Virus record (IMG/VR): IMGVR_UViG_3300023196_001512
Span: 1 to 61,495 of that record
Reading direction: 5' to 3' (one strand)
Origin: a virus
Lineage: Duplodnaviria; Caudoviricetes
DNA length: 61,495 bases
Shown piece by piece: positions 2 through 53,979 of the stretch (position 1 is its first letter; each line of letters starts with the position of its first letter). Both the position numbers and the translations under genes were made by a program. Below the pieces are notes generated by a model. The model did no database searches and was not told the DNA's origin. It saw nothing but the letters and a program-made list of their open reading frames with translations.

Positions 2-808
2 AGAGTTGTTAGCTCTACCACGCTGAGGATTAGTTTCCCACCAATCACCAGACTTGCAGCCTATCATTTCATTATCTGCAGCACTGAACAAGCTAATAAG
101 AGCAGCTCTTCTAATTCCACCAGCAAGTACAGCGTCAGCAATATGGCAGATAATATCGTGCACCTCAATACTACTGAGATTCGATCCGTCTTCTTTCGCA
201 TTTAGTATTCCTTCTATTTTAATTAAACATTCTTTTAGAGGCTGTGGACCAGGCGCCTTACCACCAGATGTAACAAGCCTTGCGCCTTTAGGTCTAATGT
301 CAGTATAATCAAATATAATCTTAGAAGTACGCTTGTCGCCTAAGTAAGATTTAACTAACACTTTAACAGCGTCAGACCAACCTTCAATACTGTCACCAAT
401 AACGAAACGTCTACTACGCTTGTCAAACGGTTTAGTAATAGCCGGTAAGTTTTTAACGTGATGTTTCTGTACAGAGTAGCCTACGCCACAACCAGACAAT
501 AATAGAAACATTATCTCATTAAAAGCATCGATACTATCAGCAGGAAGATATGAACAATTATATAACCTGTTAGGAGATATTTCGATTGGCTTGCCCGCAA
601 ACTGTAGTGATCGCATGCTTGGTAAAACCTTCTTAGCATATACGTGACTGTACGCTTCATCTATTTCATTTATTAAATTAGGATATTTCTTTTTGTGCAT
701 TGCTATATTACGGTCTACAAGTTCCGCCCAAGTTTCCCGGCGGTTAAGCTCGGGAATATACTTAGCGTACTTCATATGAACCGTAATATCTGAGAGGATA
801 TTATTCAT
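2..808 (-). CDS. nrdJ: Class II (adenosylcobalamin-dependent) ribonucleotide reductase, N-terminal part, truncated by window edge
   Basis: Not in the ORF track; translated by hand from ATG 808 as MNNILSDITVHMKYAKYIPELNRRETWAELVDRN, later PSMRSL, LYNCSY, GCGVGYSV and WWETNPQRGRANNS, typical of monomeric RTPR. Confidence 0.9.
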   Translation of the reverse strand, partial: MNNILSDITVHMKYAKYIPELNRRETWAELVDRNIAMHKKKYPNLINEIDEAYSHVYAKKVLPSMRSLQFAGKPIEISPNRLYNCSYLPADSIDAFNEIMFLLLSGCGVGYSVQKHHVKNLPAITKPFDKRSRRFVIGDSIEGWSDAVKVLVKSYLGDKRTSKIIFDYTDIRPKGARLVTSGGKAPGPQPLKECLIKIEGILNAKEDGSNLSSIEVHDIICHIADAVLAGGIRRAALISLFSAADNEMIGCKSGDWWETNPQRGRANNS

Positions 809-3241: not shown

Positions 3242-3345
3242 AAATTTCTTTGTTAATTATATACCAAAACTTTAAGCCAAGACTACTTAACCTTTTGTTT
3301 AGTATTTTAGTTACACCATTTTGGTTCATTGCTATTGTCTTGTGA

Positions 3346-3618
3346 TCAAGATGTCTTATTGTATTTGTCATAATAATAGTTGTAATATTCTAATTGTTTA
3401 ATTAATACTTCGTTTTTCTTAAAGCTTGGACTAAAGTTTGATTTATCTTTAATAACTATTTCAATACAAAAGTCTAAGCCTGAGCCAGTATACTTTTGAG
3501 CAGGTACAACACAGCATTTTATACCGTGATTAATACACCAAGAAATTTTGTGAAAATCTTCTTTAGACCAAGCATAAAAACCTGCTTTAAATGGTCTACG
3601 TTTAGCCATTATTCCCAA
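3346..3618 (-). CDS. Hypothetical protein
   Basis: ORF in operon, adjoining the primase-helicase stop; true start may be the third Met. Confidence 0.65.
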   Translation of the reverse strand: MGIMAKRRPFKAGFYAWSKEDFHKISWCINHGIKCCVVPAQKYTGSGLDFCIEIVIKDKSNFSPSFKKNEVLIKQLEYYNYYYDKYNKTS

Positions 3619-18516: not shown

Positions 18517-18957
18517 ATGCGATTAACTAGTCACGATTTACGTGAATTACAAATCCTAAAGTATTACAGGCTCACTAGAAAGTGGGTCTGTAAGACTTAC
18601 GGGTTAACAGATGCCGAACTTGAATTGCTAATATACTTAGACTGCAAGAAACGGTTTACAAGACAAGAATTTATCGATGGTACTTATACCATGAGCTGGG
18701 ACAAGAAGCGTTGGGATAAACTAAGAAAAGAAGGCTGGATAGAAGTATGGCGACACAGAAACAGAACTACAATAAAGTACTCTGTGTTTAAAACATCATT
18801 TAAATGCGGCCAAATAATAAGCAGGATATATAGAATACTACTAGGCGAAGAAGATATGCCTACATCAGAGAGAAGCGTATTCTATAATAACAAATCATAT
18901 ACAGATAAAGTTTATAACAAAGCTATAGATGATATGATAAAAGACAAAGACAGGTAA
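18517..18957 (+). CDS. Winged-helix (MarR-like) protein
   Basis: YGLTDAELELLIYL...LRKEGWI. Confidence 0.6.
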   Translation: MRLTSHDLRELQILKYYRLTRKWVCKTYGLTDAELELLIYLDCKKRFTRQEFIDGTYTMSWDKKRWDKLRKEGWIEVWRHRNRTTIKYSVFKTSFKCGQIISRIYRILLGEEDMPTSERSVFYNNKSYTDKVYNKAIDDMIKDKDR

Positions 18958-19391
18958 TGAGTTTTAAACTAGGTAAAGGTAGAACACCAATAGCAGTGAA
19001 TGGACAAATTTCTAAGAAGATGAAGTTTGGTCAAGAAGCTGGAGATGCAGACGCATCTGTACCTGGAACACCTGTTATAAGAAAAGATTTAGAACCTGGA
19101 GTTATGGGTGAGGCTAACATGGATGGTAGCATTTACATTAGCAATGACATAGAGCCTGGCAGTGAAGTAGAGAGACAAGTTATTAATCACGAGATGAGAC
19201 ACTCAACTGACATGCGTATAGGTAAATTAGCTTATGGCGATAACTTTGTACAATGGAACGGTAACACATACCCAAGGATGGACATCAACGGTAAAGATAT
19301 GATTATAATCGATGGTGTAGCTAAAGAAGCTGGTGACGGTGACTTTCCTTGGGAGAAAGAAGCAAATAACGGAAACGCATATGGTGGGTAA
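18957..19391 (+). CDS. Zincin-like metallopeptidase (HExxH)
   Basis: GEANMDGSIYI...VINHEMRH. Confidence 0.7.
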   Translation: MSFKLGKGRTPIAVNGQISKKMKFGQEAGDADASVPGTPVIRKDLEPGVMGEANMDGSIYISNDIEPGSEVERQVINHEMRHSTDMRIGKLAYGDNFVQWNGNTYPRMDINGKDMIIIDGVAKEAGDGDFPWEKEANNGNAYGG

Positions 19392-32463: not shown

Positions 32464-35400
32464 ATGGCAGAGATTACTAACAATTTTCTTCAAGGTAAAA
32501 TGAATAAAGACCTTGATGAAAGAATTTTACCTAAAGGACAATATAGAGACGCGATGAATATACAGATCGCTACGTCTGATGGTTCAGATGTTGGTAGTGC
32601 TCAAAGTATTCTTGGAACTAAAGCTCTTTCTGCTATAGGCGCTTATGACTCTACGTCAGTTTGCATAGGCAGTATTAAAGACACTTTAACAGACTGCATA
32701 TACTACTTTGTTAGATCTAGCAATAGAGACTTTATAGCTAAATACGATGCTAGAGCAGATTACGCTACTTTTGTAGCTGTAGACTTGAGTAGAACACCTG
32801 ATTTAACAGATGGAGATGGAAATCCAATAACTTTAGATCCTTTTTTAAAATTTACTGGAAAGCAAATAACAGCTATAAATATTATAGATAATTATTTGTT
32901 TTGGTCAGATGGTGACAACGAGCCTAAAAAAATAGATTTATCTAAAAATTATTCAGGTCTACAAAGTAATCCTCAAAGTTATAATCATCACTCAAGACTT
33001 ATTCTTGATGGCGTCAACTACGGTTTTTTAAAAGAAGAGCACTTAACTGTTATAAAGAAAAAGCCTCTTAGAGCTCCTCAAATAAAAGTAAACTCTTCTA
33101 AAGGCAACGAAAAGTCTTCTATATTCCAAAGACAAATACCTAGATTTTGTGTTAGGTATAAATACGAAGACAATCAACTATCTGCTTTTAGTCCGTTTAC
33201 TCAGCCAGTTTTTAATGCAGAGTATATTGATGATTACAATAGCAACAACTTCTACGATATATCGGAGTCGTATAACACTGCTATGTTAAACTACATTAGT
33301 TCAATAGAAGTCTACGGCTTTGTAGATAATAGTATGCCTGACGATGTTGTTGAAGTAGAAATACTTTACAAAACAGAGGACTCTAATGTAATATATTCTA
33401 TAGCTAAAATAAAAAAAACAGATACAAGTTGGAGTGATATAGGAAGCTATATAGGAGATTTAGGCTTTAATGAGCCAGGTACATATCTTGATACTTCAGG
33501 AAGCTATGTTATAAGAAGTGAAAATGTTTTTACGGCAATAGCAGAAGATCAATTTTTGAGACCTTTCGATAATGTTCCTAGAAAAGCTTTAGCGCAAGAA
33601 GTTGTTGGTAACAGAATAGTTTACGGTAACTACACTCAAAACTACGATTTAGACTCTGTTGATATAGAAGCAACAGCAGCACCGTATTTCTATGAAACAC
33701 AGGACAAACCTGTTAAATCATTAAAATCAGATAGAAGCTATCAAGTAGGAGTGTTGTTTGTCGACGACTACGGAAGAGAAACTCCTGTGTTTACTTCTAC
33801 ACAAGGCGGTTTTAAAACAATTCAAGATTTATCTAGTGAAGCAAGTTGGAAGACTAGTATAAAGGTAAACTCTAATATTCCTGAGTGGGCTCGTTATTAT
33901 AAGTTTTATATAAAAGAATCTTCAGGACAGTATTACAATTTATTAAATCAAAGAGTTTACATACCGTTTTCTCACAGTCAATTTGAAAACAACGAAAGCC
34001 ACGTGTACCTTTCTTTTCCTTCAAAAGATAGATCTAAAATATCTGTTGACGACTACATTGTTTTAAAAACAGTGATGTTAGAGCCTACGCCTTTTAGAGT
34101 AGGCGAAGATAATAAATATAAAGTATTAGACGTTAGTAATGAAGCTCCAGAAGCAATATCATATAAGTTTTATGATCTTGGAGCAGTTGATAACAAAGAG
34201 TCTAATATTTTAACTAGTGAAACGACTGGTATTTTTGTGCAAGACCCAAGCGTTAATGAAGCTGACTTGCAACGTATAGACCAGCAGACTGATACTTTAA
34301 TAATACGAAAAGACGAATGGCAGGCTATTGGTGTAGATGGCGCCGCTTTAACTAATAGCGAAGGTGGTGGAAATGAAACTTCAAATAAAGTAGAAAACCT
34401 TTACGTGTCATGGTCCTTAGGCAGCTTGCAATCTAAAAGATATAAAGTAACAAACGTAAGAGTATCATTAGACAGTAATTATATTATTAGGTTAAGTGAG
34501 GTAATAAATCTTCAAGACGCTTTAATAGCTAACTTAAATGGTCTAGATACTGATGGAGATTTAAACAGGCAGACTAACATGCCTCCTAATCTTAAGTTTA
34601 AGATACAAAGAAAAGATAGATATTCAGATGAAAACTTTTCTGGACATTTCTTTGTTAAGATAGCGGCGGATGAGCTAATAAAATCTCAACTTGTAAACCA
34701 ACCTAAGCAGATAGAAGCTACAGACAAAGTATTAGCTGCTGAAAAACTTTACTTATGGTTAGACGAAGCTGATGCAAGTGCCAGCACAACAAAAAACAGT
34801 AACGTTCAACATTACGATTTAATTACTAATAATTACTATGGTGGAACAGGTTCTCAGCCAGCAGACATTACTGTCCCTATTGATGGCAACGGAATAACTA
34901 ATAGTAAGGTAGAGTGGGATAATCTTTTAAACGCTAATATAGGTTTTGGCGATGGTCAAGGCAAGTTTTTCATTGACGGTATGTACATGGCCGCTTCTAA
35001 TCCATCGCAAACTTTATATGCTAGAGAGTCAGGTCAAGGATGGGTAGGTAGCGCTGATATAAGATATCCAAGTATAGTTTGGAGTAAAACTCAATCAGGC
35101 CAAAATGTAGACGAAAAAACAGGTTGGAGATTAGAAGACGCGCCAGACCAATACACAGCAATAACTTTTTATAATACCACCCTCAGCTATACTTATAATA
35201 CCAGTGAGATGGACGCTACTACGCAAGCGCCTATCAGTTTCAATGCTGCAGACGCTGCAAGCAACTACGTGAACGGTATAGAGCCTATTTTCCAAGCTAA
35301 CGCTGATTATACAAGTAATACTTACAATGAAAATTCTAGAAGATGGTCAAATTCTACTATATATGGATCTAGTAGAGTAGACGATTTAACAAATACATAT

Positions 35401-38400
35401 AGCCCTAACGGCTATTATATGCACGTTTCGTTTTTAGGTCCTGGTGAAGATTTATTTTCTAAAGACCAAGATTTTCCTGACGGCGTAGCATCAAGAGGTA
35501 TAAGATCGTTAGGTAATTATACTCAAGGAATATGGGGCGGTGGAGCTTTTAACAACGGCGCGAGAGATGGTTTTGTAGAAATGGAAGGGCATTATGGCAG
35601 TGCTTTTTTTAATAATTATAATATAGCATCTGCAACAGTACCTGGGCCTAACGTTAAAGCAGGTGAAGCTATGGGTATAAATTATCAAGAAGATCGGTGG
35701 TCTGTTTTAGGTTACGATTTAAACTATCAAGAGCAGCATGAAAGACAGTTTGACCTTACGTATGGAACAGATAACGTACAGAAGGTTCAAGAAATAATTA
35801 GCAATTTAGTTGCTGGTAAAAAGTTTAGATTTTCAGTAGATACTAATAAAGAAATATATACTATATTAGGTGTTGACGTAAAACGCGTATATAATCACAC
35901 GCCTTGGCGCGCGAGAAAAGTGTGGGACGGATCTAGTTTTGTCAACGGTGAAGACAGTGTTGAAGAGGCGGTTCTTGATTGGGCAACTAACAACAGTTAT
36001 ACAGCTGATGTAAATGCTGGAAACTTGATAAACGCTGGCGCAGCTACTGGTGAACAAGCGGTAAGATGGAATACTGTTTTAGATAGACTAGAAGCTTTCG
36101 GAGCTAAATCTAATAGGCGTGTAGTTTACGCTTTAAAATTAGATAAAGATCCTACTTCTTTTGTTTTAAGTTCAAATGACAATACTTTCGACGTTGATAG
36201 TAGCAATAGTTTAATTGAATTTGTAGAAGAGAGTGCTAAATCGTTTTCTAGTGAAGCTAGCACTAATAAAGCTTTGTTTGAAACAGAGCCTGAAAAATCA
36301 GCTGACTTAGATATTTACTATGAGATTAGCGACGCTATACCTGTAGAAATAACAAAAGAAAATAAAGATATTATATTTCCAATAGGATCTAAAGTAGAAA
36401 TCTTAAACTTTGACAAAGCTGTTGATGGAATTGAATTACCTAAAGCTAGATATATCCGCCAAGCTTTTTATTCTGCCGCGGGAGATTTAAGTATTGTTGT
36501 CAACGGGTTAGATGATGCTGATCGTGGATTTAATTATTACGATCCATCTGACGGAGCAACAGAGCTAGATTATGTAGGTAAAATTTTAGCTATAACTAGA
36601 GCTGACGGCAGTGTTGTTCATGTTGAGATCACTCAAAGAAACGCGAGCAGTGCTTATTACACTAGCGGCGACGGCTCAGGAAACTATGGCTACGCTTTAA
36701 GTTTTAAAGTAAAACTTTCACCATCGCTACCTTATTACTCAAACTTTTACAACGTATTTGCTTTTGGCAACGGTATTGAGTCTAACACTGTTAGAGATGA
36801 TTTTAACGGAGTTTCTATAAGAACAGGTGCTAGAGCATCTACAACACTAGATGAGCCTTATAGAGAGGAAGTAAGAGAGCATGGTTTAATATTCTCTGGA
36901 CTATATAATTCTAACACAGGCGTTAACAACTTAAATCAATTTATACAAGCTCAGAAAATAACTAAAGACTTAAATCCTACTTACGGTAGCATACAAAAGT
37001 TGTTTCAACGACAGACTAACTTAGTAGTGTTTTGCGAAGACAGAGTTGTTAAAGTAATTAGCAACAAAGACGCTATATTCAACGCTGATGGTAACCCTCA
37101 GTTAGTTGCTAACGACAGAGTTCTTGGTCAAGTAACTCCTTTTGTTGGTGAGTTTGGTATATCTAAAAATCCAGAGTCTTTTGCTAGCGAATCATATAGA
37201 GCTTATTTTACAGACAAGCAAAGACGAGCCGTGTTAAGACTTTCAATGGACGGTTTAACACCAATATCAGATGCTGGTATGAAAGACTGGTTTGGCGACA
37301 ACTTAGCAGATAATAGTATTGCATGCTTAGGCACATACGACGATGACAAGCAAGAGTACAACTTAACTATAAAAGAAGGTTATAATAAAAATATAATTGC
37401 TAACGACTCTTTTGATGATGGTGTAGAATTAGTTGAAACGTATCTTGGTCAAAATTTAGTTAATACTGCTTTTACTGGAGGTTCAGCATTTACCGATTTA
37501 ACTTCACCGTCAAAACGAGCTCAGTTTTATCTTTCAAAATTAATATATAATTCTGGGCAAATAATAAGAGACGCTAATATCGACGGTACAATAACGCACG
37601 ACTTACCTTCCGCCCCTCCTGTTCTTGAAGCTGGCAGATGGTATATGTCTGAAATAGAGTCGCCATATAACACTAACTTTATCTCAACATCAAGCGGGCT
37701 TGTTGAAACTAATAACATTAACGTTATAGCAGATAGTGGAGTTGCACTTCAAGTTATAGATATTTTTGAATTTGGCTATGGTTCAGAAACAGTAGATGAA
37801 GCAGGTCTAGCAACGCCAGACCTTCATAATTTTAACCAAACAGACGCTGAATTTAGACAAGAGCTACCTTATCACTTTGGCCAGATCTCTGGTGCTGGTG
37901 TAAGCGGTAATACTATGAGTTTTATGCTTGCCGCTAGAGATCACACAAATATAGGTGAGCCGATATTGTTAGCTATATGGAAGCAGCAAGTTGAAGCTCC
38001 TTTTAGTTTTAGAAGCTGGTTTGGCCCTAGTGTAAATCCAGGTTTTGACATAGCTACTATAAAGTTATACGATATAACAGAACCGCCTAGCATGTCAGTG
38101 CCTAGTGGATGGGCCGTGCAGAGCGAAAACTACACTATGCCACATGCGGGTTATAGATATATAGAAGAGTTTTATATTGACGATGAGTATACTGAAGACG
38201 AAAGAGCTCGTCCAATGGTTTACTATAAAGATAATGCTATTCAATTTAATACTGTTAGTAAAGAATATTTAGCCGCTGAAATTTATAACAGCAATTCTAG
38301 CTCGTTTGATCCTGAGGCAGAATACTTAACACCTACGCATGCTGGATATAATTTTTCTTTTACTATAGGCCCTAATGTTGATACAGGGAATATATCTGGA

Positions 38401-39639
38401 AATCTATATGTAAGAGCTTTAATACCTGACGCGTCAGGTAGTGGTGCTGGATTTAGACTTAGCAATGTTAGCGCACCAGGTGAATATGTCATAAATTATA
38501 ATGCCACGTCTGATTATGTGCCAAGCATAGTTACTCAGCCACAAGGATCAGATGCGCAATTGCTAGCTGGTAGCAATTCTACTAGTAGTAACTATACTTT
38601 TTCTTTTAGTCAACTTGCAAACGATACTTTTGAAGGTTCTATTAGTAATATATCAATATTAGATGTTACTCCTACGTTCACCGGTGGTGGTGTTGATAAT
38701 TGGATTCTTGCAGGTTTTGATTCAAGCGTAAGAAACGATTTGTACTGGGAGAAAAGTACTAGCTCTTTAGTTTGGGATAACGTTGATTTAATCGCTTCTA
38801 CTGGAGGTGTAACAGCTAGACAAAACGTAGGACTTTTAAAGACTGGAGATGCTTATACATTGTCTTTTGATTACACTGGAAACACAGGAACGTTTAAAGG
38901 ATATTATTATAATAAAGACGATAAAGGATTTTATTTTGAGCTTGATCAAAATCAAGGTCATTTTAGTCAAAACTTTATTATTGGCGACAACACAAGTAGC
39001 ACGGCTACAAAAAACGCTTTAGTATTATATTTTATTGGCGAAGATGATAATGGCGCTAGTATAAAAGTTGATAATATTGTTTTTAGATCTACTGTAAGAG
39101 AAAACTTCAACGCCAGAACGTTAAGCTATAGCGAACAAGCTAAAGGTTGGATAAGTTTCAAATCTTTCATACCAGAAAGCGGCGTAAGCTTAGGTGGAGA
39201 CTACTACACGTTTAGTAACGGATCAATACACAAGCATCACCAAGAAGAGACTAATAATAACGTTTTCTATGATCAAGCAAGAGTAAATTCTTATATTGAT
39301 TTTATATTTAATGACTCTACTCCTGTAATAAAAGATTTTAAAGCATTATCTTACGAAGGTAGTGCAGGAAAAAGAAACAGTTATGTCGAGCATGTTGATG
39401 GCGCTACTGATGTAAACTACGACAACTTAAACAGTGTTGACGGTTGGTTTGTTTCAAACATAGCTACTGACTTGCAAAGAGGTTCTATACCAGAGTTTAT
39501 TAAAAAAGAAGGTAAATACTATAACTATATAAGAGGAGGTTCTTTTGACAACACAAACTCAGATGACATAGGAAGTTTAAATGTACAAGGCTTAGGTATT
39601 ATTGCTGATGTTGAGTACGATCAAATTATTGTAGACTAA
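32464..39639 (+). CDS. Tail nozzle/muzzle (phage stabilization protein-like), 2391 aa
   Basis: N-term F..GKMNKDLDER..P.GQY.DAMN; GEFGISKNPESF, YFTD, GWISFKSF, F..KEGKYY. Confidence 0.75.
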   Translation: MAEITNNFLQGKMNKDLDERILPKGQYRDAMNIQIATSDGSDVGSAQSILGTKALSAIGAYDSTSVCIGSIKDTLTDCIYYFVRSSNRDFIAKYDARADYATFVAVDLSRTPDLTDGDGNPITLDPFLKFTGKQITAINIIDNYLFWSDGDNEPKKIDLSKNYSGLQSNPQSYNHHSRLILDGVNYGFLKEEHLTVIKKKPLRAPQIKVNSSKGNEKSSIFQRQIPRFCVRYKYEDNQLSAFSPFTQPVFNAEYIDDYNSNNFYDISESYNTAMLNYISSIEVYGFVDNSMPDDVVEVEILYKTEDSNVIYSIAKIKKTDTSWSDIGSYIGDLGFNEPGTYLDTSGSYVIRSENVFTAIAEDQFLRPFDNVPRKALAQEVVGNRIVYGNYTQNYDLDSVDIEATAAPYFYETQDKPVKSLKSDRSYQVGVLFVDDYGRETPVFTSTQGGFKTIQDLSSEASWKTSIKVNSNIPEWARYYKFYIKESSGQYYNLLNQRVYIPFSHSQFENNESHVYLSFPSKDRSKISVDDYIVLKTVMLEPTPFRVGEDNKYKVLDVSNEAPEAISYKFYDLGAVDNKESNILTSETTGIFVQDPSVNEADLQRIDQQTDTLIIRKDEWQAIGVDGAALTNSEGGGNETSNKVENLYVSWSLGSLQSKRYKVTNVRVSLDSNYIIRLSEVINLQDALIANLNGLDTDGDLNRQTNMPPNLKFKIQRKDRYSDENFSGHFFVKIAADELIKSQLVNQPKQIEATDKVLAAEKLYLWLDEADASASTTKNSNVQHYDLITNNYYGGTGSQPADITVPIDGNGITNSKVEWDNLLNANIGFGDGQGKFFIDGMYMAASNPSQTLYARESGQGWVGSADIRYPSIVWSKTQSGQNVDEKTGWRLEDAPDQYTAITFYNTTLSYTYNTSEMDATTQAPISFNAADAASNYVNGIEPIFQANADYTSNTYNENSRRWSNSTIYGSSRVDDLTNTYSPNGYYMHVSFLGPGEDLFSKDQDFPDGVASRGIRSLGNYTQGIWGGGAFNNGARDGFVEMEGHYGSAFFNNYNIASATVPGPNVKAGEAMGINYQEDRWSVLGYDLNYQEQHERQFDLTYGTDNVQKVQEIISNLVAGKKFRFSVDTNKEIYTILGVDVKRVYNHTPWRARKVWDGSSFVNGEDSVEEAVLDWATNNSYTADVNAGNLINAGAATGEQAVRWNTVLDRLEAFGAKSNRRVVYALKLDKDPTSFVLSSNDNTFDVDSSNSLIEFVEESAKSFSSEASTNKALFETEPEKSADLDIYYEISDAIPVEITKENKDIIFPIGSKVEILNFDKAVDGIELPKARYIRQAFYSAAGDLSIVVNGLDDADRGFNYYDPSDGATELDYVGKILAITRADGSVVHVEITQRNASSAYYTSGDGSGNYGYALSFKVKLSPSLPYYSNFYNVFAFGNGIESNTVRDDFNGVSIRTGARASTTLDEPYREEVREHGLIFSGLYNSNTGVNNLNQFIQAQKITKDLNPTYGSIQKLFQRQTNLVVFCEDRVVKVISNKDAIFNADGNPQLVANDRVLGQVTPFVGEFGISKNPESFASESYRAYFTDKQRRAVLRLSMDGLTPISDAGMKDWFGDNLADNSIACLGTYDDDKQEYNLTIKEGYNKNIIANDSFDDGVELVETYLGQNLVNTAFTGGSAFTDLTSPSKRAQFYLSKLIYNSGQIIRDANIDGTITHDLPSAPPVLEAGRWYMSEIESPYNTNFISTSSGLVETNNINVIADSGVALQVIDIFEFGYGSETVDEAGLATPDLHNFNQTDAEFRQELPYHFGQISGAGVSGNTMSFMLAARDHTNIGEPILLAIWKQQVEAPFSFRSWFGPSVNPGFDIATIKLYDITEPPSMSVPSGWAVQSENYTMPHAGYRYIEEFYIDDEYTEDERARPMVYYKDNAIQFNTVSKEYLAAEIYNSNSSSFDPEAEYLTPTHAGYNFSFTIGPNVDTGNISGNLYVRALIPDASGSGAGFRLSNVSAPGEYVINYNATSDYVPSIVTQPQGSDAQLLAGSNSTSSNYTFSFSQLANDTFEGSISNISILDVTPTFTGGGVDNWILAGFDSSVRNDLYWEKSTSSLVWDNVDLIASTGGVTARQNVGLLKTGDAYTLSFDYTGNTGTFKGYYYNKDDKGFYFELDQNQGHFSQNFIIGDNTSSTATKNALVLYFIGEDDNGASIKVDNIVFRSTVRENFNARTLSYSEQAKGWISFKSFIPESGVSLGGDYYTFSNGSIHKHHQEETNNNVFYDQARVNSYIDFIFNDSTPVIKDFKALSYEGSAGKRNSYVEHVDGATDVNYDNLNSVDGWFVSNIATDLQRGSIPEFIKKEGKYYNYIRGGSFDNTNSDDIGSLNVQGLGIIADVEYDQIIVD

Positions 39640-43655: not shown

Positions 43656-46600
43656 ATGAATAATCTACAAAAACTATATCAAACTATATTTGATGCTGGC
43701 TTGATCAATAATTCTTTTGAGGATTTTAGCCAAGGCATGCTTGGTGAAGATTATCAAAAAAAAGTATTTGATGCTATTACTGACAAAGGCTTATTTAGTC
43801 AAGATTTTAATACTTTTAAGTCTGGTTATTCTCCTAAAAAAGTAAAAATTTTTGGTAAAGAAAAAGATCAAGATGATTTAAGCTTCTTTGAAAGCTTAGC
43901 TGTGTCTATGAAAAACAAATTTCCAGAGATTTCAAAAACATTAGACTGGTACAGCGCTTACACTGTTGATGTTGGTGTGGATCTTGCTGACGCTGTTTTT
44001 GGAGATGCTTTTAGTACTACACCTAAAGATGTTGTTGATAAAGAGTTTGGAGGAGACTTTAAGTCTGCTATAGATAAGTCGTCTGATAAAGATGCTAGCA
44101 CAAAAAATGTATATTTCATAGATCCTTTAACTAAAAATAAAATTGTTTTTGATAAAAAGGCTTTTGAATCAAAGGGACATTATGCTGAAGAAAACGAAAG
44201 ATGGTATGAGCTTGCTAGGCTAGCTGAAAAGTCTGATGATATAGAAAGCGGCTTTATAGATTCTGATGCTAACGCTATAAAAGCAGATATGGCAATGCCT
44301 GTTATAAAAAGAGCTCTTGAAACCGAAAAAGAAATACAAGAGTTTACTAGCAGAGATACTACAGGTTTTACAGACGCGATGAAGAAAGGGAAAACCAAAG
44401 ATGCTTCTTTGTACGCTATAGACTTTGCTGGTCAAATGTTAAAATCTATTGTATTGGCTAAACTTACTAGAGGAGCGTCTCTATATGCTGAGGCCGTTTC
44501 TAGCACTTACCAGGGCTTTAACTTAGAGAAAGCTAACGCTTTGTATGGAGGAAGAGACGAAGAGTCTGTTAGAAAGCTTATGGCAAACGGCGAAAGTGAA
44601 GTTTTAATTCCAACTGCAGCGGCGGGGTTTGTCGCAGCTTTAGATAAATTAGGCTTAGATGGCCTGTCAGGCAAGTACTTTAAAAATATATTAGCACATA
44701 GAAAAGCTTTAACGCTACTTGTAGGATCTGGTACTGAAGGTGCTACTGAATATACTCAAGGTTTATTAGAAAGATTTAATAATAATCTAGGTGCTCAAAT
44801 GAGTGTAAAAGAAGCCGCAGAAGATGTAGCTGAATACGCTGGATCAGACGAGGCTTTAGATCAGTTTTTTGCAGGTTTGATTGGTGGTGGCATGATTCAA
44901 GGTGGTGGTATGACATACAACGCTGCGTTTAGAAGAGATGAAGCCTCTATAGATTTTATTGATAAAAAAATAAACAACATTAACAAACTTCAAGAAGAAG
45001 CTTATAAATTACAAGATCCTGAAGTAATTAAAGCTAACAAAGCTAAAGTAGATCAAGAGTTTAAAGAACTAAAGCTTTATCTAAAAAGAAACAAAGACGC
45101 CTCTGAGTTTTTAACTGATAAAGGAAAAAAAGAAATAATAGATTTAGCTAATTCAAGAGAGTCTGTACAGAAGAAAATAAAAGAATTAAACAACCTTAAA
45201 AAGAAGGGCGCTATAACAAAAGAAGCAGCTGAAGTTAGATTAAACCAATACCAGTCGCAGTTAAAAGAAATAAATAGTAAAACAACAGAGATAAGAAATG
45301 AAGCGGTTAAGTCAAAACTTCAAGCAGACTTAAAAACTTCTGGTTTTGCTGTAGAGAATATTGACGAGCTAAATCAAGTAGTAGTAAAAGACGGTAAAGA
45401 ATTATTCGAGAAAGTTGACGAGTGGTATAAAAGACATGGCTTAGAAAATCCTTATACTCAGAGTGAGTTTGAAGGCCAAGGCGGTGGTGACGCTTTGATA
45501 TTAGGTAACAATATATTTATAAACGAAAAAAATGCTGTTAAAAATTCAGCATTTGGCGTTGGTACTCACGAGTTTTTGCACGCTGTAATTAAGTCTGTTA
45601 TTAGAAAAAAAGACGGTAGTGGTGAGCTTTCTGACAAAGGCGTAGCTTTAGTTAAAGACTTTTTAAATACATTGAGTAGAAGCGATAGAGTTGAAGTTGA
45701 AAAACGAATGAGAGATGAATACGAAGAAGGTCTTTCAGAAGAACAAAACTTTAGAATATACGGCGAAGAAGCTTTAACTTATTATGTTCAATTAAAGAAA
45801 GAAAAAAGATTAACTAAATCTGCTGCTCAAAGAGGCATGATGTGGCTTAAAAATTCTTTTAGCAAAGAAACGCCTTACAAAAACTTAGATATAACTGATG
45901 GTAAAAGTTTTCAAAACTTTCTTGACATTTTTGTTTCAGATGCAGATCAAGGTCAGTTTAGATCTGAGTTTGTTGCTTTAGCTAAACAAGGAGCTGAAGA
46001 AACTGTAGTTGAAACAAAAGCCGCAGCTAGTAAAACTACTCGTAGAGCTAAAAGAAGTCGTACGGTAGCAGAAAAACAGATAACCGAAAAAGCTAAAACT
46101 GCTCAGAGCAAGATAGATGAAATTGGTAAAAAAGCTAGTAACAAAGCTGAATACGATGCTGGTGTAAATGTTGAGGCTTATACTTATTTAACTGAAGGTG
46201 GAGGATTATCTGCTATGATAAAAGCTAAACTCTTAAAATATGACATAAGCGTTTCTGGTAAAGACGCTAATGTTTATGGGCAGCCATTAGAGCTTTTTAT
46301 TGAAGATGTTAAAGGAAGAGTAATACCAGCTATATTAGGATTTAATCCTGAAAAAGAAACTACTAGTGAAGGTAAGTTTGGGCTTTCTGGTTGGGTAAAC
46401 TTTAATTTAAATAAAAGAGTTTTAGATAGCATAGGAGACTCTAAAAAAACTGTTGTAGGTGTTTCTTTAAACAAAAAGGTTGGAGACTCAGACATGGAAG
46501 TTGGAGACTTTTTATATGTTGAAGGCGACAAACGTATAGAAAGCTTTGAAGAGCAAAACTTAAGCGTATATAGTGAGACGCAACAAGAAAACGTAGAGAT

Positions 46601-49600
46601 CACTGCAGAGCAAGAAGCTTTACAATCAAAGTATCGTCATAAATTAAAAAATCAAGACGGATCTAAGCTTATTGGCGTTAGTCAAGTTGAAAACATTAGA
46701 GAAGGCTTAAGAAAAATATTTAGAACACTACAAACTGAAATAAGCGCTAGTGAATTTTTATTGAACTTTGAAAACACGGTAAAAAAGACCATGAAGAATA
46801 TTGTTCAAGGTGCTATTGGAACAAAAGAAACATATAGAAAATTCTTAATTAATAATATTGAAACTATAGTAGAATATAGTTCACTACAAGATTTAGTCGC
46901 GTTAGAGCGTTTAGTAGGTAAAGGCAAAACTAAAGGCGGTAGAAAAATATTTACCGTACCTGTTAAAAGACTTACAAAAAAAGAAGATATACAAAAAGCT
47001 ATTGATCAAGGTAAATTACCGCCTGATGCTATTAACAAAAGCGAAGAAGGTGTATTTTTATCTGAGAAAAGAGTACCTACTCAAGAAGAATTAGAAGCAT
47101 ATTTTCTTGGTAAAAATATGATGGAGGTTTTAGGTTATGAAGTTGGTTCTTCTACGCTAGGAACTAGAAAAGACGGATTATCACGTATGGTTACTACATC
47201 TCTTGCACAAGATGCTACTATGGAAACTATACAAGAACCTGATATACTAGAAGAGGCTTCAGTATTTACTGAAGGTTTATCAGCAGAAATACAAGTAGGA
47301 CAACTTGCTGGTAAAATAAATAAATCTCCTTTTTTGAAGTTTACAAGAAGTGCATTTGAAACTTTAGACAGCTCTAAACACGAAGACTACAAGTCAGCGT
47401 ATAAGGGTTTTGAAAACGGTAAATTTTTACTTGCTAAGCCTAAAGGTATAGATCAAGAAGCTTACGACTATGCTTATCTTGATTTTGTTAGAAGTAGATC
47501 AGATGTATACAAAGTTACTAAGTTAAAAGAGTTAAGAAACAAATTATATGGTAAAAACGCTGATTACTCTAGAGCTAAATACGATGAAAAACTTTCTCTT
47601 AGAATAGAGCGTATCGCTAGAGACAATATAAACAAAGTTGCAAAGGGTATACCTTTTGTAGATGTAGTATTAGCTGATTCTGCTAACTCTAATTTACCAG
47701 ACATACTTTTAATGTTCGACGGTAAAGATTTATTAGCTATAGAGGTAAAGGCTGATTCTGCTAGAACTTCTTCTATTACTGCGTATTTTACTCTTAAACT
47801 AGAAGGCATTTTAGGTCTTTCTGCACAAGTACAGCAACCTGAGTTATTGAGCGATATATACAAAGAAAAAGCAGTTCCTGTTCTTAAAAAAATGAAAAAA
47901 AGACTTAAGGATAGATTTGGTATTGACTTTGACGGATCTACAACAGAGCTTACTCCACAGCAGTACTATTACTTACAAGGAAAGTTTGTAAATGGCAAAA
48001 AAATTAAAGGCTTAAGCAATCTAATGGTAGAGCTTAACGCTGCCACTAAAACTTCTGTTGATAGCTCTTGGGCTTCTTTTGGGTATTTAAACAAAAGTAT
48101 TCCTTCGCAATATATTAACCTAGGCCTTGCTGGATTATTTCACTTTGGAAAAGAGTCAAATGATATAATGAATTTAGGTACTAAATCATTCGATGGAGTT
48201 CAAATACCTTTAAGCTTTAGAATATCAAGACATAGATTAGCAAACGGTAATTTTGGAATAAGAATTAGAGTTGACGCGCAGCTATCGTCGCAAGCTTTTG
48301 CTGAATCTAAAAATCATGGTAAAAGTAATATCAATGTGATGTTAGAAGCTGGTGGTAGACAGTTCTTCAAAAATAAAGACGGTGTTAAAAGACTTGAAGT
48401 AAGGGGTAAAAGATCAAAATCTGAGTCTATTAATAAAGCTTCAGAGCTTGCTAGACTCACCAACAAAAGCACGCCATCAAGAGGTATGAGTATTTTTGAT
48501 TTCGATGAAACAGTTGGTGTTAGTGAAAATGTAGTCATAGCTAATAAAGATGGTGTTGTAAAAGAAGTATCTTCAGATCAATGGCCTCACGTTGGTGAGC
48601 AATTAAAAGCTGAAGGTTGGACGTTTGATTTTAGTGATTTTAATAAAGTTACTAAAGGTAAGCCAGGCCCTCTCATGCAAAAGTTAAAAAATCAAATATC
48701 TAAATACGGAAACAAAAACGTATTTATATTGACCGCAAGAGCTCCTCAAAGTCAAAAAGCAATATTTGAGTGGTTAAAATCTCAAGGAATTATTTTGCCA
48801 TACGAAAACATAACTGGGCTAGGTAATAGCGCTGGTAATGCTAAAGCTCAGTGGATATTAGATAAGTATGCAGAAGGGTATAATGATATTTATTTTGTAG
48901 ATGATGCTATGCCTAACGTTGATGCAGTTCAGCATGTGTTTGACCAGCTAGACATTAAAGGTAAGTCTGTGCAAGCTAAAATTAAGTTTAGCAGAACTAA
49001 AAAACAAAACTTTGACAGTATACTTAAGCGTACTGTAGGAATTGATCAAGATATAGATCCTGCTAGAGCTAAAATAATAGGCGCTAAAAAGGGTAGTAAA
49101 GAATTTTTTATTGCACCAGGCGCTGATGACTTCCAAGGCTTGATGATGAGGTTAGCTGGTAAAGGCAAGCAAGGAGAGTCTGACATGAAGTTTTTCAAGC
49201 AAGTTTTCTTTGATCCATTTAATAGAGCGTATAGAAAATTAAATTCTATACAGTATAACATGATGGAAGGTTATAATAAAGTAAGAAAAGAGCATAAAGA
49301 TGTTATTAAAATACTTAAGAAAAAGTTTGACAGTGAATTTACTAATGAAGACGCTATAAGAATATACCTGTGGGATTTACAGGATATAGAAGTTCCAGGT
49401 TTAACAACTAAAGAGCAAAAAGCTATAGCTGCTAAAGTTGCTGAAAACGCTGACATGGTTAATTTTGCTTTAGATATAAGAAAAACTTTACAACTTTCTG
49501 GAGAATATGTAGCTCCAAAAGAAACCTGGAGTGTTGGTAGTATAAAAGGCGACATGTACGAAGCTTTAAACTCTGTGCATAGAAATAAAGCTTTGCAAGA

Positions 49601-51170
49601 GTGGCAAGAAAACATTGATGAGTTATTAGATAATCCTGAAATGTTAGCTAAGCTTGAAGCTTCTATGGGGAAAAGTTATGTTGAGGCCTTGAAAGACATG
49701 TTATATCGTATGCGTACTGGTAAGAATAGACCTACTGGTCCAAACGCTATGACTAACAAAGCTATGAACTGGCTACAAGGCGCTGTTGGTGCCATCATGT
49801 TCTTTAATAGTAGATCTGCTGTTCTTCAGACAATATCTACTATAAACTTTATAAATCACACAGACAATAATATATTTGCTTTTGCTAAGGCTATAGCTAA
49901 CGTAAGTCAGTTTGCTGAAGATTTTAAAATGTTGTTTAACTCGCCACAGTTGAAAGTTAGAAGATCTGGTTTACAACAAGATATACAAACGGCTGATTTA
50001 GCTGATAGCTTGAGTCGTGGTGGTGGTGCTAGCGGAGCACTAGCGTATCTACTTAAAATAGGATTTTTACCAACTCAAATAGCAGATAGCTTTGCTATTG
50101 CTTTTGGTGGTGCTGCTTTTTACAGAAACAGAGTGAACTCTTTAATGAAGCAAGGCATGACTCAAGAACAAGCGGAGAGCCAAGCAATGATAGACTTTCA
50201 AGATATTACAGAAGAGTCTCAACAGTCAAGTAGACCTGATCGTATATCACAGCAACAAGCTGCTCCTGTTGGTAGGTTATTATTAGCTTTTCAAAACACT
50301 CCGCTACAGTATAATAGAATAATTAAAAAAGCAATTACTGATATAGCAAACAAAAGAGGTGACATAAAAACTCACATATCAAGAATAGCTTACTACGGCG
50401 CAATACAAAGTCTTATATTCTACACTCTTCAACAAGCGTTGTTTGCAGAAGACGATCCAGAAGAAGAGCAAATACCAAGTAGCGTTAAAAAACAATATAA
50501 AAAAGGAATTAAAGACGGAACCATAAACAGATTTGAATATCCTAGCGTAAAATTTTACTATGCAGATACTAAAGCTAAGCAAAAGCAAGAGAGTTTAGTA
50601 AACAGTATGGCTGATGGTTGGCTAAGAGGTTCTGGCGTGAAAGGTGCTATAGTTTCTACATTTAAAAACGTAGTTAGAAGCTTTATGAAAGAAAGCGAAA
50701 AAGGATATAAAGCAGACTACTTTAATACGTTTATAGAAGTATTAAATGTGTCACCACAAATCGGTAGTAAAGCTAGAAAAATAAAAAGAGCTAGTGATAC
50801 GTATAAGTACAATAAAGATGTAATGTCTGAAATAGGCGCTTTTGATATTGATAATCCAGTATATCCTATGGCTTTTTCTTTAATAGAAGGTGTTACTAAC
50901 GCTCCAACACACAGGATATACACTAAGCTTGATAACTTAAAAGAAGCTTTTAATGAAGACAATACTGCAATGCAAAGAACATTTGTATCGTTGGGTTGGA
51001 ATCAATGGCAATTAGGCATTGATACATACAAAGATGTCAGAGAAGCTAAAGAAAAAATAAAAGAAAGAGAAAAAGCTAAAAAGAAGCAATGCCGTCAAAT
51101 TTTAAAGAACGGTAAAAGATGTAGCATAAGAACAGCTAGCAAAAGTCAGCTGTGCTATCATCACGATTAA
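43656..51170 (+). CDS. Giant multidomain (polyvalent) protein, probably virion-packaged and ejected
   Basis: HEFLH..EE zincin; sigma-like segment; PD...IEVK nuclease; DFDET/LTAR/FVDD HAD; C-terminal C-x9-C-x10-C-x2-H finger. Confidence 0.8.
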   Translation: MNNLQKLYQTIFDAGLINNSFEDFSQGMLGEDYQKKVFDAITDKGLFSQDFNTFKSGYSPKKVKIFGKEKDQDDLSFFESLAVSMKNKFPEISKTLDWYSAYTVDVGVDLADAVFGDAFSTTPKDVVDKEFGGDFKSAIDKSSDKDASTKNVYFIDPLTKNKIVFDKKAFESKGHYAEENERWYELARLAEKSDDIESGFIDSDANAIKADMAMPVIKRALETEKEIQEFTSRDTTGFTDAMKKGKTKDASLYAIDFAGQMLKSIVLAKLTRGASLYAEAVSSTYQGFNLEKANALYGGRDEESVRKLMANGESEVLIPTAAAGFVAALDKLGLDGLSGKYFKNILAHRKALTLLVGSGTEGATEYTQGLLERFNNNLGAQMSVKEAAEDVAEYAGSDEALDQFFAGLIGGGMIQGGGMTYNAAFRRDEASIDFIDKKINNINKLQEEAYKLQDPEVIKANKAKVDQEFKELKLYLKRNKDASEFLTDKGKKEIIDLANSRESVQKKIKELNNLKKKGAITKEAAEVRLNQYQSQLKEINSKTTEIRNEAVKSKLQADLKTSGFAVENIDELNQVVVKDGKELFEKVDEWYKRHGLENPYTQSEFEGQGGGDALILGNNIFINEKNAVKNSAFGVGTHEFLHAVIKSVIRKKDGSGELSDKGVALVKDFLNTLSRSDRVEVEKRMRDEYEEGLSEEQNFRIYGEEALTYYVQLKKEKRLTKSAAQRGMMWLKNSFSKETPYKNLDITDGKSFQNFLDIFVSDADQGQFRSEFVALAKQGAEETVVETKAAASKTTRRAKRSRTVAEKQITEKAKTAQSKIDEIGKKASNKAEYDAGVNVEAYTYLTEGGGLSAMIKAKLLKYDISVSGKDANVYGQPLELFIEDVKGRVIPAILGFNPEKETTSEGKFGLSGWVNFNLNKRVLDSIGDSKKTVVGVSLNKKVGDSDMEVGDFLYVEGDKRIESFEEQNLSVYSETQQENVEITAEQEALQSKYRHKLKNQDGSKLIGVSQVENIREGLRKIFRTLQTEISASEFLLNFENTVKKTMKNIVQGAIGTKETYRKFLINNIETIVEYSSLQDLVALERLVGKGKTKGGRKIFTVPVKRLTKKEDIQKAIDQGKLPPDAINKSEEGVFLSEKRVPTQEELEAYFLGKNMMEVLGYEVGSSTLGTRKDGLSRMVTTSLAQDATMETIQEPDILEEASVFTEGLSAEIQVGQLAGKINKSPFLKFTRSAFETLDSSKHEDYKSAYKGFENGKFLLAKPKGIDQEAYDYAYLDFVRSRSDVYKVTKLKELRNKLYGKNADYSRAKYDEKLSLRIERIARDNINKVAKGIPFVDVVLADSANSNLPDILLMFDGKDLLAIEVKADSARTSSITAYFTLKLEGILGLSAQVQQPELLSDIYKEKAVPVLKKMKKRLKDRFGIDFDGSTTELTPQQYYYLQGKFVNGKKIKGLSNLMVELNAATKTSVDSSWASFGYLNKSIPSQYINLGLAGLFHFGKESNDIMNLGTKSFDGVQIPLSFRISRHRLANGNFGIRIRVDAQLSSQAFAESKNHGKSNINVMLEAGGRQFFKNKDGVKRLEVRGKRSKSESINKASELARLTNKSTPSRGMSIFDFDETVGVSENVVIANKDGVVKEVSSDQWPHVGEQLKAEGWTFDFSDFNKVTKGKPGPLMQKLKNQISKYGNKNVFILTARAPQSQKAIFEWLKSQGIILPYENITGLGNSAGNAKAQWILDKYAEGYNDIYFVDDAMPNVDAVQHVFDQLDIKGKSVQAKIKFSRTKKQNFDSILKRTVGIDQDIDPARAKIIGAKKGSKEFFIAPGADDFQGLMMRLAGKGKQGESDMKFFKQVFFDPFNRAYRKLNSIQYNMMEGYNKVRKEHKDVIKILKKKFDSEFTNEDAIRIYLWDLQDIEVPGLTTKEQKAIAAKVAENADMVNFALDIRKTLQLSGEYVAPKETWSVGSIKGDMYEALNSVHRNKALQEWQENIDELLDNPEMLAKLEASMGKSYVEALKDMLYRMRTGKNRPTGPNAMTNKAMNWLQGAVGAIMFFNSRSAVLQTISTINFINHTDNNIFAFAKAIANVSQFAEDFKMLFNSPQLKVRRSGLQQDIQTADLADSLSRGGGASGALAYLLKIGFLPTQIADSFAIAFGGAAFYRNRVNSLMKQGMTQEQAESQAMIDFQDITEESQQSSRPDRISQQQAAPVGRLLLAFQNTPLQYNRIIKKAITDIANKRGDIKTHISRIAYYGAIQSLIFYTLQQALFAEDDPEEEQIPSSVKKQYKKGIKDGTINRFEYPSVKFYYADTKAKQKQESLVNSMADGWLRGSGVKGAIVSTFKNVVRSFMKESEKGYKADYFNTFIEVLNVSPQIGSKARKIKRASDTYKYNKDVMSEIGAFDIDNPVYPMAFSLIEGVTNAPTHRIYTKLDNLKEAFNEDNTAMQRTFVSLGWNQWQLGIDTYKDVREAKEKIKEREKAKKKQCRQILKNGKRCSIRTASKSQLCYHHD

Positions 51171-51200: not shown

Positions 51201-51590
51201 ATGGCTTATACGCAAAAAAATAACCCTTTTCCTGTCACAGGTTGCGGCAGAAGAAGAACGTTTCAAACAACTGGTAATCCTATAAGAGTGTTTGATGATT
51301 CTCCTATGCGTAAAGCTGATCCACGTAGGACTATTGGACGTGGCAAAAACTTTAATAAAGCAAACAAAACAGGTACAGGCGCTGCTGCAGGTGGTGGTAT
51401 GACACAAAAAGGTGTTAACGAGTACAAAAGAAATAATCCTGGTAGTAAATTAAAAACTGCCGTAACTACTAAACCTTCTAAATTAAAACCAGGTAGCAAA
51501 GCTGCTAAGCGTAGAAAATCATTTTGCGCGAGATCAAAAGGTTGGACCGGCGAAAGAGGTAGAGCTGCTAGAAGAAGATGGAACTGTTAA
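51201..51590 (+). CDS. Small basic protein
   Basis: MAYTQKNNPF; AKRRKSFCARS..W..ARRRWNC motif common in phages. Confidence 0.75.
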   Translation: MAYTQKNNPFPVTGCGRRRTFQTTGNPIRVFDDSPMRKADPRRTIGRGKNFNKANKTGTGAAAGGGMTQKGVNEYKRNNPGSKLKTAVTTKPSKLKPGSKAAKRRKSFCARSKGWTGERGRAARRRWNC

Positions 51591-52106: not shown

Positions 52107-52270
52107 GTAAAGCTTATCGTGGAGTATTAAAAGCTAGAATATCAAAGCTATATGGTGGAGATGTAACTGTAGCTAAAGCTCGTAAGCTAAAAGCTAGAAA
52201 AGGAGCTACACCAAGAGACAAGCAGCTAGCTAATTGGTTTATTAACATGCAAACAGCTAAAAGAAAATAA
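52103..52270 (+). CDS. Small basic protein (55 aa)
   Basis: Hand translation MSKAYRGVLKARISKLYGG...KQLANWFINMQTAKRK; overlaps both neighbours. Confidence 0.7.
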   Translation: MSKAYRGVLKARISKLYGGDVTVAKARKLKARKGATPRDKQLANWFINMQTAKRK

Positions 52271-52812
52271 TGTTTAAAGACTTTAACATATCTTCATTTA
52301 AAAAGATGAAGCCTCCAGGCAACAACACTTTTGATACGATGCAAGAGTTAAAAGAGCTTGAAAGCATACCTCTAGATAAAAAGTTTGTCAAAGAAAATGA
52401 TGACATTGAAGCTGCGTTTAAAAAAACAGCTAAAGACAATGGCATTGAAGACTATGACGCTAAAACAGCTGCTAAACTTATAAAAGAGTCAGCGCCTGTA
52501 ATATTAGAACTTAAGAAATACTTTAATAGACCAAGACCTAAAGTAAATGCTAAGAAAATGAATATTAGCATGAAGGATATAGAGATGGAATCAATGAAAA
52601 CACCGTCATATCCATCAGGTCACTCAGTGCAAGGTGTATTAATAGCTAAAGTATTAGGCGACAAATATCCTAAGGCTAAATCAGCTTTTAATAAGACCGG
52701 CGAAAATATATCTTATAGTAGACGAGTTGCCCACGCTCACTATAAGTCAGATAGTAAAATGGGCGAAAAGTTAGGTAACTCAATGTATAAACACATTAAA
52801 AACAAAATTTAA
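52270..52812 (+). CDS. PAP2-superfamily phosphatase/haloperoxidase-like protein
   Basis: Three PAP2 motifs: KKYFNRPRP, PSYPSGH, SRRVAHAHYKSD. Confidence 0.85.
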   Translation: MFKDFNISSFKKMKPPGNNTFDTMQELKELESIPLDKKFVKENDDIEAAFKKTAKDNGIEDYDAKTAAKLIKESAPVILELKKYFNRPRPKVNAKKMNISMKDIEMESMKTPSYPSGHSVQGVLIAKVLGDKYPKAKSAFNKTGENISYSRRVAHAHYKSDSKMGEKLGNSMYKHIKNKI

Positions 52813-53656: not shown

Positions 53657-53979
53657 TGAAAGTACTGCTAACCACAATACTGCTTTTAATTTGCGTTACG
53701 GCTTATTGTCAAATTGAAGTAGTTCACTTTAACGCCGGCTGGAACGACGCTAACGACATTGAGTGGTTTTCTAAAATAAAAGACTGCGATACTAAAAGCT
53801 TGTTAATAGAAGACGATAATAATCAAAGTAAGTACAAGATAGCAATAGTGCCAACAATAGTAATATTTGATGATGGAGAAGAAGTTAAAAGATTTCAAGC
53901 AGACCTTAGTTTCAAAATGGTTGCAACTAAAGAAGAAGTTAAAGAATATATTGAAGAACTTATAATTAGTAAATTTTAA
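53656..53979 (+). CDS. Exported thioredoxin-fold protein lacking CxxC
   Basis: Signal peptide; VVHFNAGWN; YKI.IVPTIVIF.DGEEVKRF. Confidence 0.75.
   Translation: MKVLLTTILLLICVTAYCQIEVVHFNAGWNDANDIEWFSKIKDCDTKSLLIEDDNNQSKYKIAIVPTIVIFDDGEEVKRFQADLSFKMVATKEEVKEYIEELIISKF

Follow-up and report, generated by a model that had tools for sequence, protein, structure and literature searches.

The DNA analysed here (the window) is the whole virus record IMGVR_UViG_3300023196_001512 (Duplodnaviria; Caudoviricetes), with 61,495 bases and an estimated completeness of 98%. On its plus strand, positions 43656..51170 hold a giant open reading frame (ORF), read from the sequence, that encodes a modular protein of the polyvalent type, P0001, with 2504 amino acids (aa); the same ORF had been delimited in an earlier reading of this DNA without database searches (the sequence-only reading). 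P0001 is built of modules, and cassettes are exchanged in its family at a short peptide motif that lies in the linkers between modules. The motif is discussed below as the candidate cleavage site of a zincin-type metallopeptidase contained in the same chain. Four pentapeptides of the pattern K-[FR]-[ST]-[RK]-[ST], already located in the sequence-only reading, were found again on the plus strand: KRSRT (K799, residues 799-803, 46050..46064), KFTRS (K1228, residues 1228-1232, 47337..47351), KRSKS (K1585, residues 1585-1589, 48408..48422), and KFSRT (K1777, residues 1777-1781, 48984..48998). All modules described in the following are encoded on the plus strand as well.

The protein begins with a segment of ~61 aa (43656..43838) that is conserved apart from what comes after it. 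High-scoring segment pairs (HSPs) cover residues 1 to 59..66 with 61-79% identity, the segment matches loci whose next ~500 aa fail to align, and HSP ends cluster at residues 60-69; this segment may be a packaging or targeting leader. The N-termini of homologues carry SLT, M15, or glucosaminidase (peptidoglycan hydrolase) domains. A zincin-like region (residues ~560-798, 45333..46049) contains HEFLH at 638-642 (nucleotides (nt) 45567-45581) and E705 (nt 45768-45770). Residue invariance was determined throughout with 21 sequences, referred to as the collinear homologues; H638, E639, H642, and E705 are shared by all 21. The HEFLH motif noted earlier at H638 is confirmed. Of 120 homologues, 115 contain a single HExxH (counts over 120 refer to the homologues listed, among 231), and the five without it include the three shortest full-length ones inspected (P0019, P0042, and P0045). 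A structure model (model A) was prepared with AlphaFold2 for residues 610-1800 from 21 sequences (mean predicted local distance difference test score (pLDDT) 63.4, predicted template modelling score (pTM) 0.34). In this model the zincin core is arranged as strand-strand-helix(HExxH)-helices with pLDDT values of 70-80. Among the language-model neighbours of this region, LPD23 (0.95, 185 shared features), LPD1, ART-PolyVal, and MuF_C are found.

The next block (block 2, residues 804-1227, 46065..47336) is mostly helical, aligns in 42-45 of 120 homologues, and contains an invariant G1169-T-R-K-D1173. It had been taken for a sigma-like segment (800-1228), an assignment that was abandoned: no Sigma70 Pfam match was found at E<=5 and no profile match in the PDB, and the comparison with the phage's own sigma factor by BLASTP gave an E value of 1.5. 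One weak lead was a Sigma70_r2 cluster at language-model rank 23 (score 0.92, 117 shared features); the sigma-like module is left without support, which counts against the sequence-only reading.

Block 3 (residues 1233-1584, 47352..48407), a putative PD-(D/E)xK-like nuclease cassette, is present in 24-28 of 120 homologues. E1318, D1349, E1363, and K1365 are invariant in the collinear homologues, and D1349, E1363, and K1365 are located on predicted strands. The structural match to the HhaI endonuclease (6uke_X) had a Z score of 8.7, which is near the noise level of the tool (root-mean-square deviation (rmsd) 4.2, 181 residues aligned, protein residues 1312-1572), and no match of block 3 was found in Pfam. 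The nuclease assigned earlier is regarded as plausible, with invariant D1349, E1363, and K1365 and a borderline structural match.

The HAD phosphatase (residues 1606-1776, 48471..48983), the fold of which is closest to polynucleotide 3'-phosphatases, was identified from structure searches and invariant motifs, in agreement with the earlier assignment. Invariant residues are D1615, D1617, and T1619 (DxDxT), T1693, and D1749 and D1750 (DD), so that motif I (DxDxT), motif II (T/S), motif IV (DD), and the Rossmann-like fold of the HAD superfamily are all present. The closest structure was the 3'-phosphatase of T4 Pnkp (5uj0_B; Z 11.4, rmsd 2.6, 126 aligned residues); 4xrp_A (Pnkp1) reached Z 11.0 and 1ltq_A Z 10.6, and other HADs (8a0c_A with 10.8, for example) lie within 1 Z unit of the Pnkp entries and are tied with them. 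HAD matches were obtained with Foldseek at a probability of 0.99, and HAD folds top both structure searches. Directly upstream of the HAD, a zeta-toxin/AAA_33 P-loop kinase was observed in P0037 (residues 1647-1996), P0048, P0068, P0104, and others. The two predicted domains recreate in these homologues a kinase–phosphatase pair of the Pnkp type; P0001 itself is without the kinase module.

The C-terminal domain (residues 1782-2476, 48999..51083) is the most conserved part of the family and aligns in 118 of 120 homologues. A separate model of residues 1777-2504 (pLDDT 79.8, pTM 0.74) is all-helical; it gave no match in the PDB with Foldseek (best E 0.2) and 63 matches at E<=1e-3 in BFVD. The BFVD matches beyond the family include large polyvalent protein-associated, PolyVal ART, and MuF C-terminal pieces (E 3e-11 to 2e-4, TMq 0.3-0.6). 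A membrane channel was considered for this domain and rejected, as no strong hydrophobic segment is present and the sole Kyte-Doolittle window of at least 1.3 is 316-334. The tail of the protein (51084..51167) reads C-x9-C-x10-C-x-H and is CCCH zinc-finger-like and DUF5763-like; a helical C-terminus with a CCCH finger, as described before, is thus confirmed. DUF5763 (PF19067) scores 11.5-13.4 bits in the query, below the cut-off of 26.3, whereas homologue P0065 reaches 35.6 bits and several homologues carry precomputed PF19067, so that the tail of P0001 is regarded as a divergent copy. The giant ORF of L005 contains, at ~3343-3435, extra tandem copies of the CCCH finger, which appear against the query as insertions of 31 and 37 aa.

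Homologues of P0001 were collected from metagenomes: the scoring of 7998 candidates gave 231 in the full-length range at E<=1e-3, all of them metagenomic, and the scoring of 8000 gave 1246 shorter ones. No match of P0001 was found by blastn and tblastn in 50,697 phage records, and the HAD and C-terminal part gave one weak HAD-only match in the same records. With the whole protein, only sub-threshold matches to DUF2608, GIPC1_GH1, and DUF5763 were obtained in Pfam, 0 families in PHROGs, and no match in the PDB by sequence; the A2 profile gave no meaningful match in the PDB. Some shorter database proteins start at or beside the motif that precedes the HAD and may be fragments from contig ends. 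A natural gene split at the motif was considered and found no support, as the nine viral-contig relatives of P0156, one of these shorter proteins, are all undivided ORFs of 2411-4318 aa. P0037 was looked for in viral contigs and was not found.

The pentapeptide pattern, which had been defined after looking at the sequence, matches P0001 four times compared with 0.053 matches expected from composition, and none of 5000 shuffles of P0001 gave at least four matches. A scan of the window in six frames, covering every stop-to-stop frame of at least 90 aa on both strands, showed the pattern in the giant ORF alone. The four matches are not due to chance. Among the homologues, the strict pattern was found 88 times in 49 of 120 proteins, nearly always as K-F-S-[KR]-[ST] after I, V, L, or M. 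In an unbiased count of tetrapeptides repeated inside a single protein, KFSK came first with 27 of 120 homologues (the runners-up, KKKK included, reached 18), and F-S-[KR] occurs 629 times where 200 occurrences are expected. As read from these homologues, the family motif is hydrophobic-[KQ]-F-S-[KR]-[ST]. The recurrence reported in the sequence-only reading consequently holds beyond chance, but its pattern mixes the family motif (1228 and 1777) with basic K-R-S variants (799 and 1585).

The four sites differ in their conservation. Site 799, a basic variant, lies in the variable, gap-rich linker after the zincin and is conserved in the closest 4 of 43 aligned rows only; at the same relative place, 120-200 aa after HExxH, x-[FLY]-S-[KR] was found in 20 of 115 homologues. 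Site 1228 is canonical as a junction motif and coincides with a breakpoint of homology. Its F1229 is invariant and its K1228 and S1230 are nearly invariant in the collinear homologues (the query has T1230), and F-S is present in 28 of 30 aligned rows. Site 1585, a degenerate junction motif before the HAD, is replaced in homologues by K-L-S-K-S, x-Y-S-K-S, R-F-S-R-S, or K-F-S-K-S. Site 1777, again canonical, is an insertion point for cassettes, with F1778 and S1779 invariant in 21 of 21 collinear homologues.

All four pentapeptides are located in segments of model A with pLDDT below 50 that lie between predicted domains, and the proposal that linkers coincide with the motifs is supported in this respect. 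Site 799 falls into the segment of model residues 172-193, site 1228 opens that of model residues 616-681, site 1585 falls into the low-confidence segment of model residues 975-996, and site 1777 into a further segment with pLDDT below 50. Such segments overlap 26-29% of pentapeptide positions, and the chance of finding 4 of 4 in them is ~0.005-0.007. As model A is of moderate confidence, the low pLDDT at these sites suggests disorder but does not prove it. The structural alignments of the HAD stop at 1775-1776, one residue ahead of K1777.

Breakpoints of homology were then compared with the positions of the motif. At residue 1226 the number of homologues covering the query goes down from 45 to 25, and between residues 1576 and 1600 it goes up from 36 to 104, with the step at 1585-1600; 17 HSPs end at 1230-1239, and those with metagenomic loci stop at 1231-1241 and begin at 1588-1609. 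In the family as a whole, KFS[KR] stands within 10 aa of 21.8% of the 4467 internal HSP ends, compared with 1.4% of random positions. Of 1660 clustered breakpoints, 183 have a copy of the broad motif no more than 12 aa away (random mean 53.9, maximum 74 in 300 draws), and 186 of 390 copies of the broad motif are placed at a breakpoint.

Individual cassettes were traced in the homologues. P0002/L016, which is 98% identical to the query, carries an insertion of 561 nt (187 aa) precisely at site 1777, with copies of the motif and of an imperfect 45-nt repeat on either side. The same arrangement is present in P0029 and P0037, and in all three proteins a helix of ~25 aa is duplicated together with the motif after the inserted cassettes. 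A second cassette of 417 aa, which has the motif on both sides, follows the HAD in L029 and L033 (inserted at the place of site 1777) and in P0122, and precedes the HAD at 70-83% identity in P0020, P0021, P0025, P0253, and L022; [KRQ]-F-S-[KR] stands directly upstream of it in 17 of 18 matches. A third cassette (164 aa, no match in Pfam) gave 23 matches among 1.84 billion representatives, at varied positions and once at a protein N-terminus, and the motif is located directly upstream in 10 of 15 judgeable matches and downstream in 11 of 17. Internal blocks are thus gained or lost exactly at the motif, where cassettes of 187, 417, and 164 aa have been inserted, lost, or moved. Since the motifs lie in linkers and cassettes are exchanged at them, the swappable cassettes proposed in the sequence-only reading are favoured, and two earlier refutation tests come out on the same side.

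Short direct repeats flank the cassette insertions, as would be expected if the motif were a DNA-level recombination signal or a stretch of microhomology whose translation is incidental. The four window sites, however, share no nucleotide word or repeat and differ in their codons, the Ser of the motif is encoded by AGY in 26 and by TCN in 13 of 39 distinct instances, and synonymous differences separate the repeats on either side of the L016 insertion; a DNA-level signal is unlikely for these reasons, and the conserved core would in any case offer only ~12 degenerate nucleotides. This explanation is considered very improbable. As judged by its codons, the motif is kept at the peptide level and not at the DNA level. 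A regulatory modification of the Ser in K-F-S-K (phosphorylation, for example) in place of a cut was also weighed, since this Ser is invariant, has basic residues on either side, and occurs in a family in which some homologues contain P-loop kinase modules. These kinases are, however, of the zeta-toxin or polynucleotide-kinase type, are paired with the HAD as in Pnkp, and are not protein kinases, and a modification site would leave the exchange of cassettes at the motif unexplained; hardly any credence is given to it.

The best overall explanation, with a rough probability of 0.5, is that P0001 is an ejected polyvalent protein in which cassettes are delimited by a motif that serves as recognition and cleavage site of the zincin. 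The module string would comprise a leader, a variable region, the HExxH zincin, a helical block, the PD-(D/E)xK-like nuclease, the Pnkp-like HAD, a helical delivery or core domain, and the CCCH finger, with independently folding modules joined by flexible linkers that contain hydrophobic-[KQ]-F-S-[KR]-[ST]. A short motif repeated at inter-domain linkers, as in self-processing polyproteins, was indeed found. The protein's own zincin would recognise and cut the motif, the F of which would fill the S1' pocket. Zincins generally select a hydrophobic P1' residue, and the likeliest scissile bond would for this reason be [KQ]/F. Cutting would take place in the capsid or after ejection and would yield separate effectors. 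Cleavage at the motif by the in-chain zincin, taken by itself, would be a nearly even proposition. It is suggested, more tentatively, that in a large family of ejection proteins from uncultured marine phages the motif may be both the cleavage site of this zincin and a standard connector by which any effector cassette could be plugged in at any junction. P0001 is probably carried in the virion and ejected, as a polyvalent protein of a ~61-kb marine podophage of the Bacteroidota type; the position of the gene after tail genes and the hydrolase domains at the N-termini of homologues suggest the location in the virion.

Linker position and cassette edges would fit equally well with a junction that is never cleaved, that is, with a signal for docking, unfolding, or threading during packing in the capsid or extrusion through the tail, or with a linker that survives since recombinants stay functional. 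The duplication of the ~25-aa helix along with the motif in P0002, P0029, and P0037 suggests a recognition unit larger than the motif. The N4 virion RNA polymerase contains a zincin-like domain and is yet packaged unprocessed, according to the main text of PMC5512222, and crassvirus cargo proteins are described without proteolysis in PMC10172136, in which 'cleav' and 'proteoly' occur 0 times and no proteolysis of cargo is reported. A plain linker would, on the other hand, need no invariant F-S-[KR]; homologues contain pairs of the motif 27-31 aa apart with short spacers between them, as is typical of polyprotein processing; and a single conserved protease motif goes with the family. An uncleaved junction is considered unlikely.

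Several observations weigh against cleavage of the motif by the zincin or against the motif as the delimiter of cassettes, the unprocessed N4 polymerase being one of them. Whole-model structure searches were dominated by the HAD and gave no domain-level fold match for the putative zincin. The query has T for S at site 1228, the fourth position of which is taken by E, F, or Q in several homologues. At sites 799 and 1585 the query has R in place of the otherwise invariant F, and L005 and L006 contain degenerate sequence at both places flanking the HAD. No motif is located close to 89% of the BLAST breakpoints, although HSP ends are noisy and many of them stem from divergence and not from the edges of modules. 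The low pLDDT of model A may be due partly to a thin alignment and not to real disorder, and no cultured phage in the 50,697 phage records searched carries the family. Finally, 39 of 120 homologues without hydrophobic-[KQNR]-F-S-[KR] keep HExxH, so that some other role, or a less strict specificity, must be assumed for the zincin.

The zincins of these 39 homologues would be accounted for if the motif were cleaved by another protease (of the host, the product of a 144-aa ORF with HEMRH, or an unrecognised phage maturation protease) and the zincin acted on host targets; according to the main text of Iyer et al. (PMC5512222), such zincins may themselves be effectors. The HEMRH ORF, named in the sequence-only reading as the alternative protease, is present in the window (18957..19391, +) and belongs to no Pfam or PHROG family; no link between it and the giant gene or its product was found. 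No prohead-protease family was detected among the window ORFs scanned, and the strict motif occurs in no other window ORF, whereas the sites of maturation proteases are usually found in several virion proteins. Cleavage by another protease is considered decidedly unlikely.

The giant gene is located in the neighbourhood of genes for GroEL, the large terminase, the portal, capsid proteins, and virion structural proteins. It lies downstream of a muzzle-like tail gene (32464..39639, +), the 2391-aa product of which contains the C-terminal domain of the crassvirus muzzle (PF25729, 28 bits, cut-off 27) and matches the virion structural protein family phrog_14478 (8e-121); this tail protein places the giant gene in the block of structural and ejection genes. 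The nearest relatives of the portal are podophages of Flavobacterium, Cellulophaga, Maribacter, and Tenacibaculum (42-56% identity), and by these relatives the ~61-kb phage is judged not to be a crassvirus. With a muzzle C-terminal domain in such a phage, a crass-type tail part may occur outside Crassvirales. The portal relatives also carry a giant gene in the same genome slot; the giants of MW202828.1 (3859 aa) and of Maribacter phage Panino (1829 aa) showed no BLAST similarity to P0001. The syntenic 3859-aa giant of L003 (MW202828.1 741-12320, minus strand) has two HEFGH motifs and is not similar in sequence to P0001. The same slot is occupied by different giant proteins with putative zincins (P0001 and that of L003).

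Further genes of the window (16272-17840 (+), 7008-7754 (-), and 52270-52812 (+)) encode a GroEL-type chaperonin, a sigma-70-family factor of the phage itself that comprises regions 2 and 4, and a phosphatase of the PAP2 family, respectively. A 608-aa ORF (53979-55805, +) ends with a C-terminal sorting domain of type IX secretion (Por_Secre_tail, 31.9 bits), which points to a Bacteroidota host; its product may use the secretion system of the host. In L005, L008, L009, L011, L012, and L013, a conserved protein of 369-376 aa is encoded directly downstream of the giant gene; its N-terminal segment resembles a signal peptide, its sequence is aromatic-rich and beta-barrel-like, and its place in the window is taken by a 129-aa DUF6321 ORF (51201-51590). 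K-Y-S-K in ORFs downstream of the giant genes of relatives was followed up and set aside, as it belongs to an unrelated signal-peptide protein.

Polyvalent proteins are common in phages and conjugative elements. Their processing by zincins into separate effectors has been predicted since 2017, and no cleavage site has been defined so far; a conserved junction motif makes this prediction directly testable. The motif also provides a rule by which thousands of unannotated giant phage ORFs may be parsed into cassettes, and it would explain how effectors are shuffled without destruction of folds. The nuclease, the Pnkp-like phosphatase, the P-loop kinases, and the cell-wall hydrolases point to the healing of nucleic-acid ends and to breaching of the envelope at the onset of infection. 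If the proposal is true, the phage injects a self-dismantling, re-assortable string of host-takeover or anti-defence enzymes.

Among known systems, the polyvalent proteins of Iyer et al. 2017 are the class in which P0001 is placed, although none of the Pfam models derived from that study (LPD1-40, ART-PolyVal, MuF_C, and others) matches it (whole protein at E<=1, six segments at E<=5). Like these proteins, it carries several unrelated enzymatic modules (the zincin motif, the PD-(D/E)xK-like block, and the HAD), and its C-terminal fold matches annotated polyvalent pieces in BFVD. According to the main text of that paper (PMC5512222), a zincin-like metallopeptidase is the commonest hub domain of the class, and both autoprocessing by the zincin and delivery with the invading DNA were predicted there. 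Since 'linker' is absent from the main text and 'cleavage site' is restricted to the reference list, a junction motif that delimits cassettes is not described in the main text. A literature search on the four pentapeptides returned no phage paper among the matches listed, a search on polyvalent protein, phage, cleavage site, and virion returned nothing relevant by title and abstract, and PMC12014285 contained nothing relevant to the junction motif.

P0001 resembles the cargo and ejection proteins of crassviruses in the position of its gene after a muzzle-type tail gene. The comparison with T4 Pnkp is limited by the query being without a kinase module; the 3'-phosphatase of that enzyme is nevertheless the best structural match of residues 1606-1776, and the arrangement of kinase and HAD is found in P0037. 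T4 and phiKZ-like phages possess a separate prohead protease that cleaves a range of different virion proteins. The reuse of a short consensus site to trim or split proteins packed in the capsid would be analogous, whereas the motif of P0001 is limited to one ORF of the window and the candidate protease is part of the same chain. MARTX toxins carry multiple effectors and are cut at the linkers between domains by an internal cysteine protease domain. The protease type (cysteine protease compared with a presumed zincin), the site, the delivery (secretion compared with phage ejection), and the lineage differ, and there is no homology. If the proposed reading is right, both would nevertheless have in common swappable effector cassettes, an internal protease, and short sites in linkers, and P0001 would represent a phage counterpart of MARTX toxins and of viral polyproteins with the first defined processing site of a polyvalent protein.

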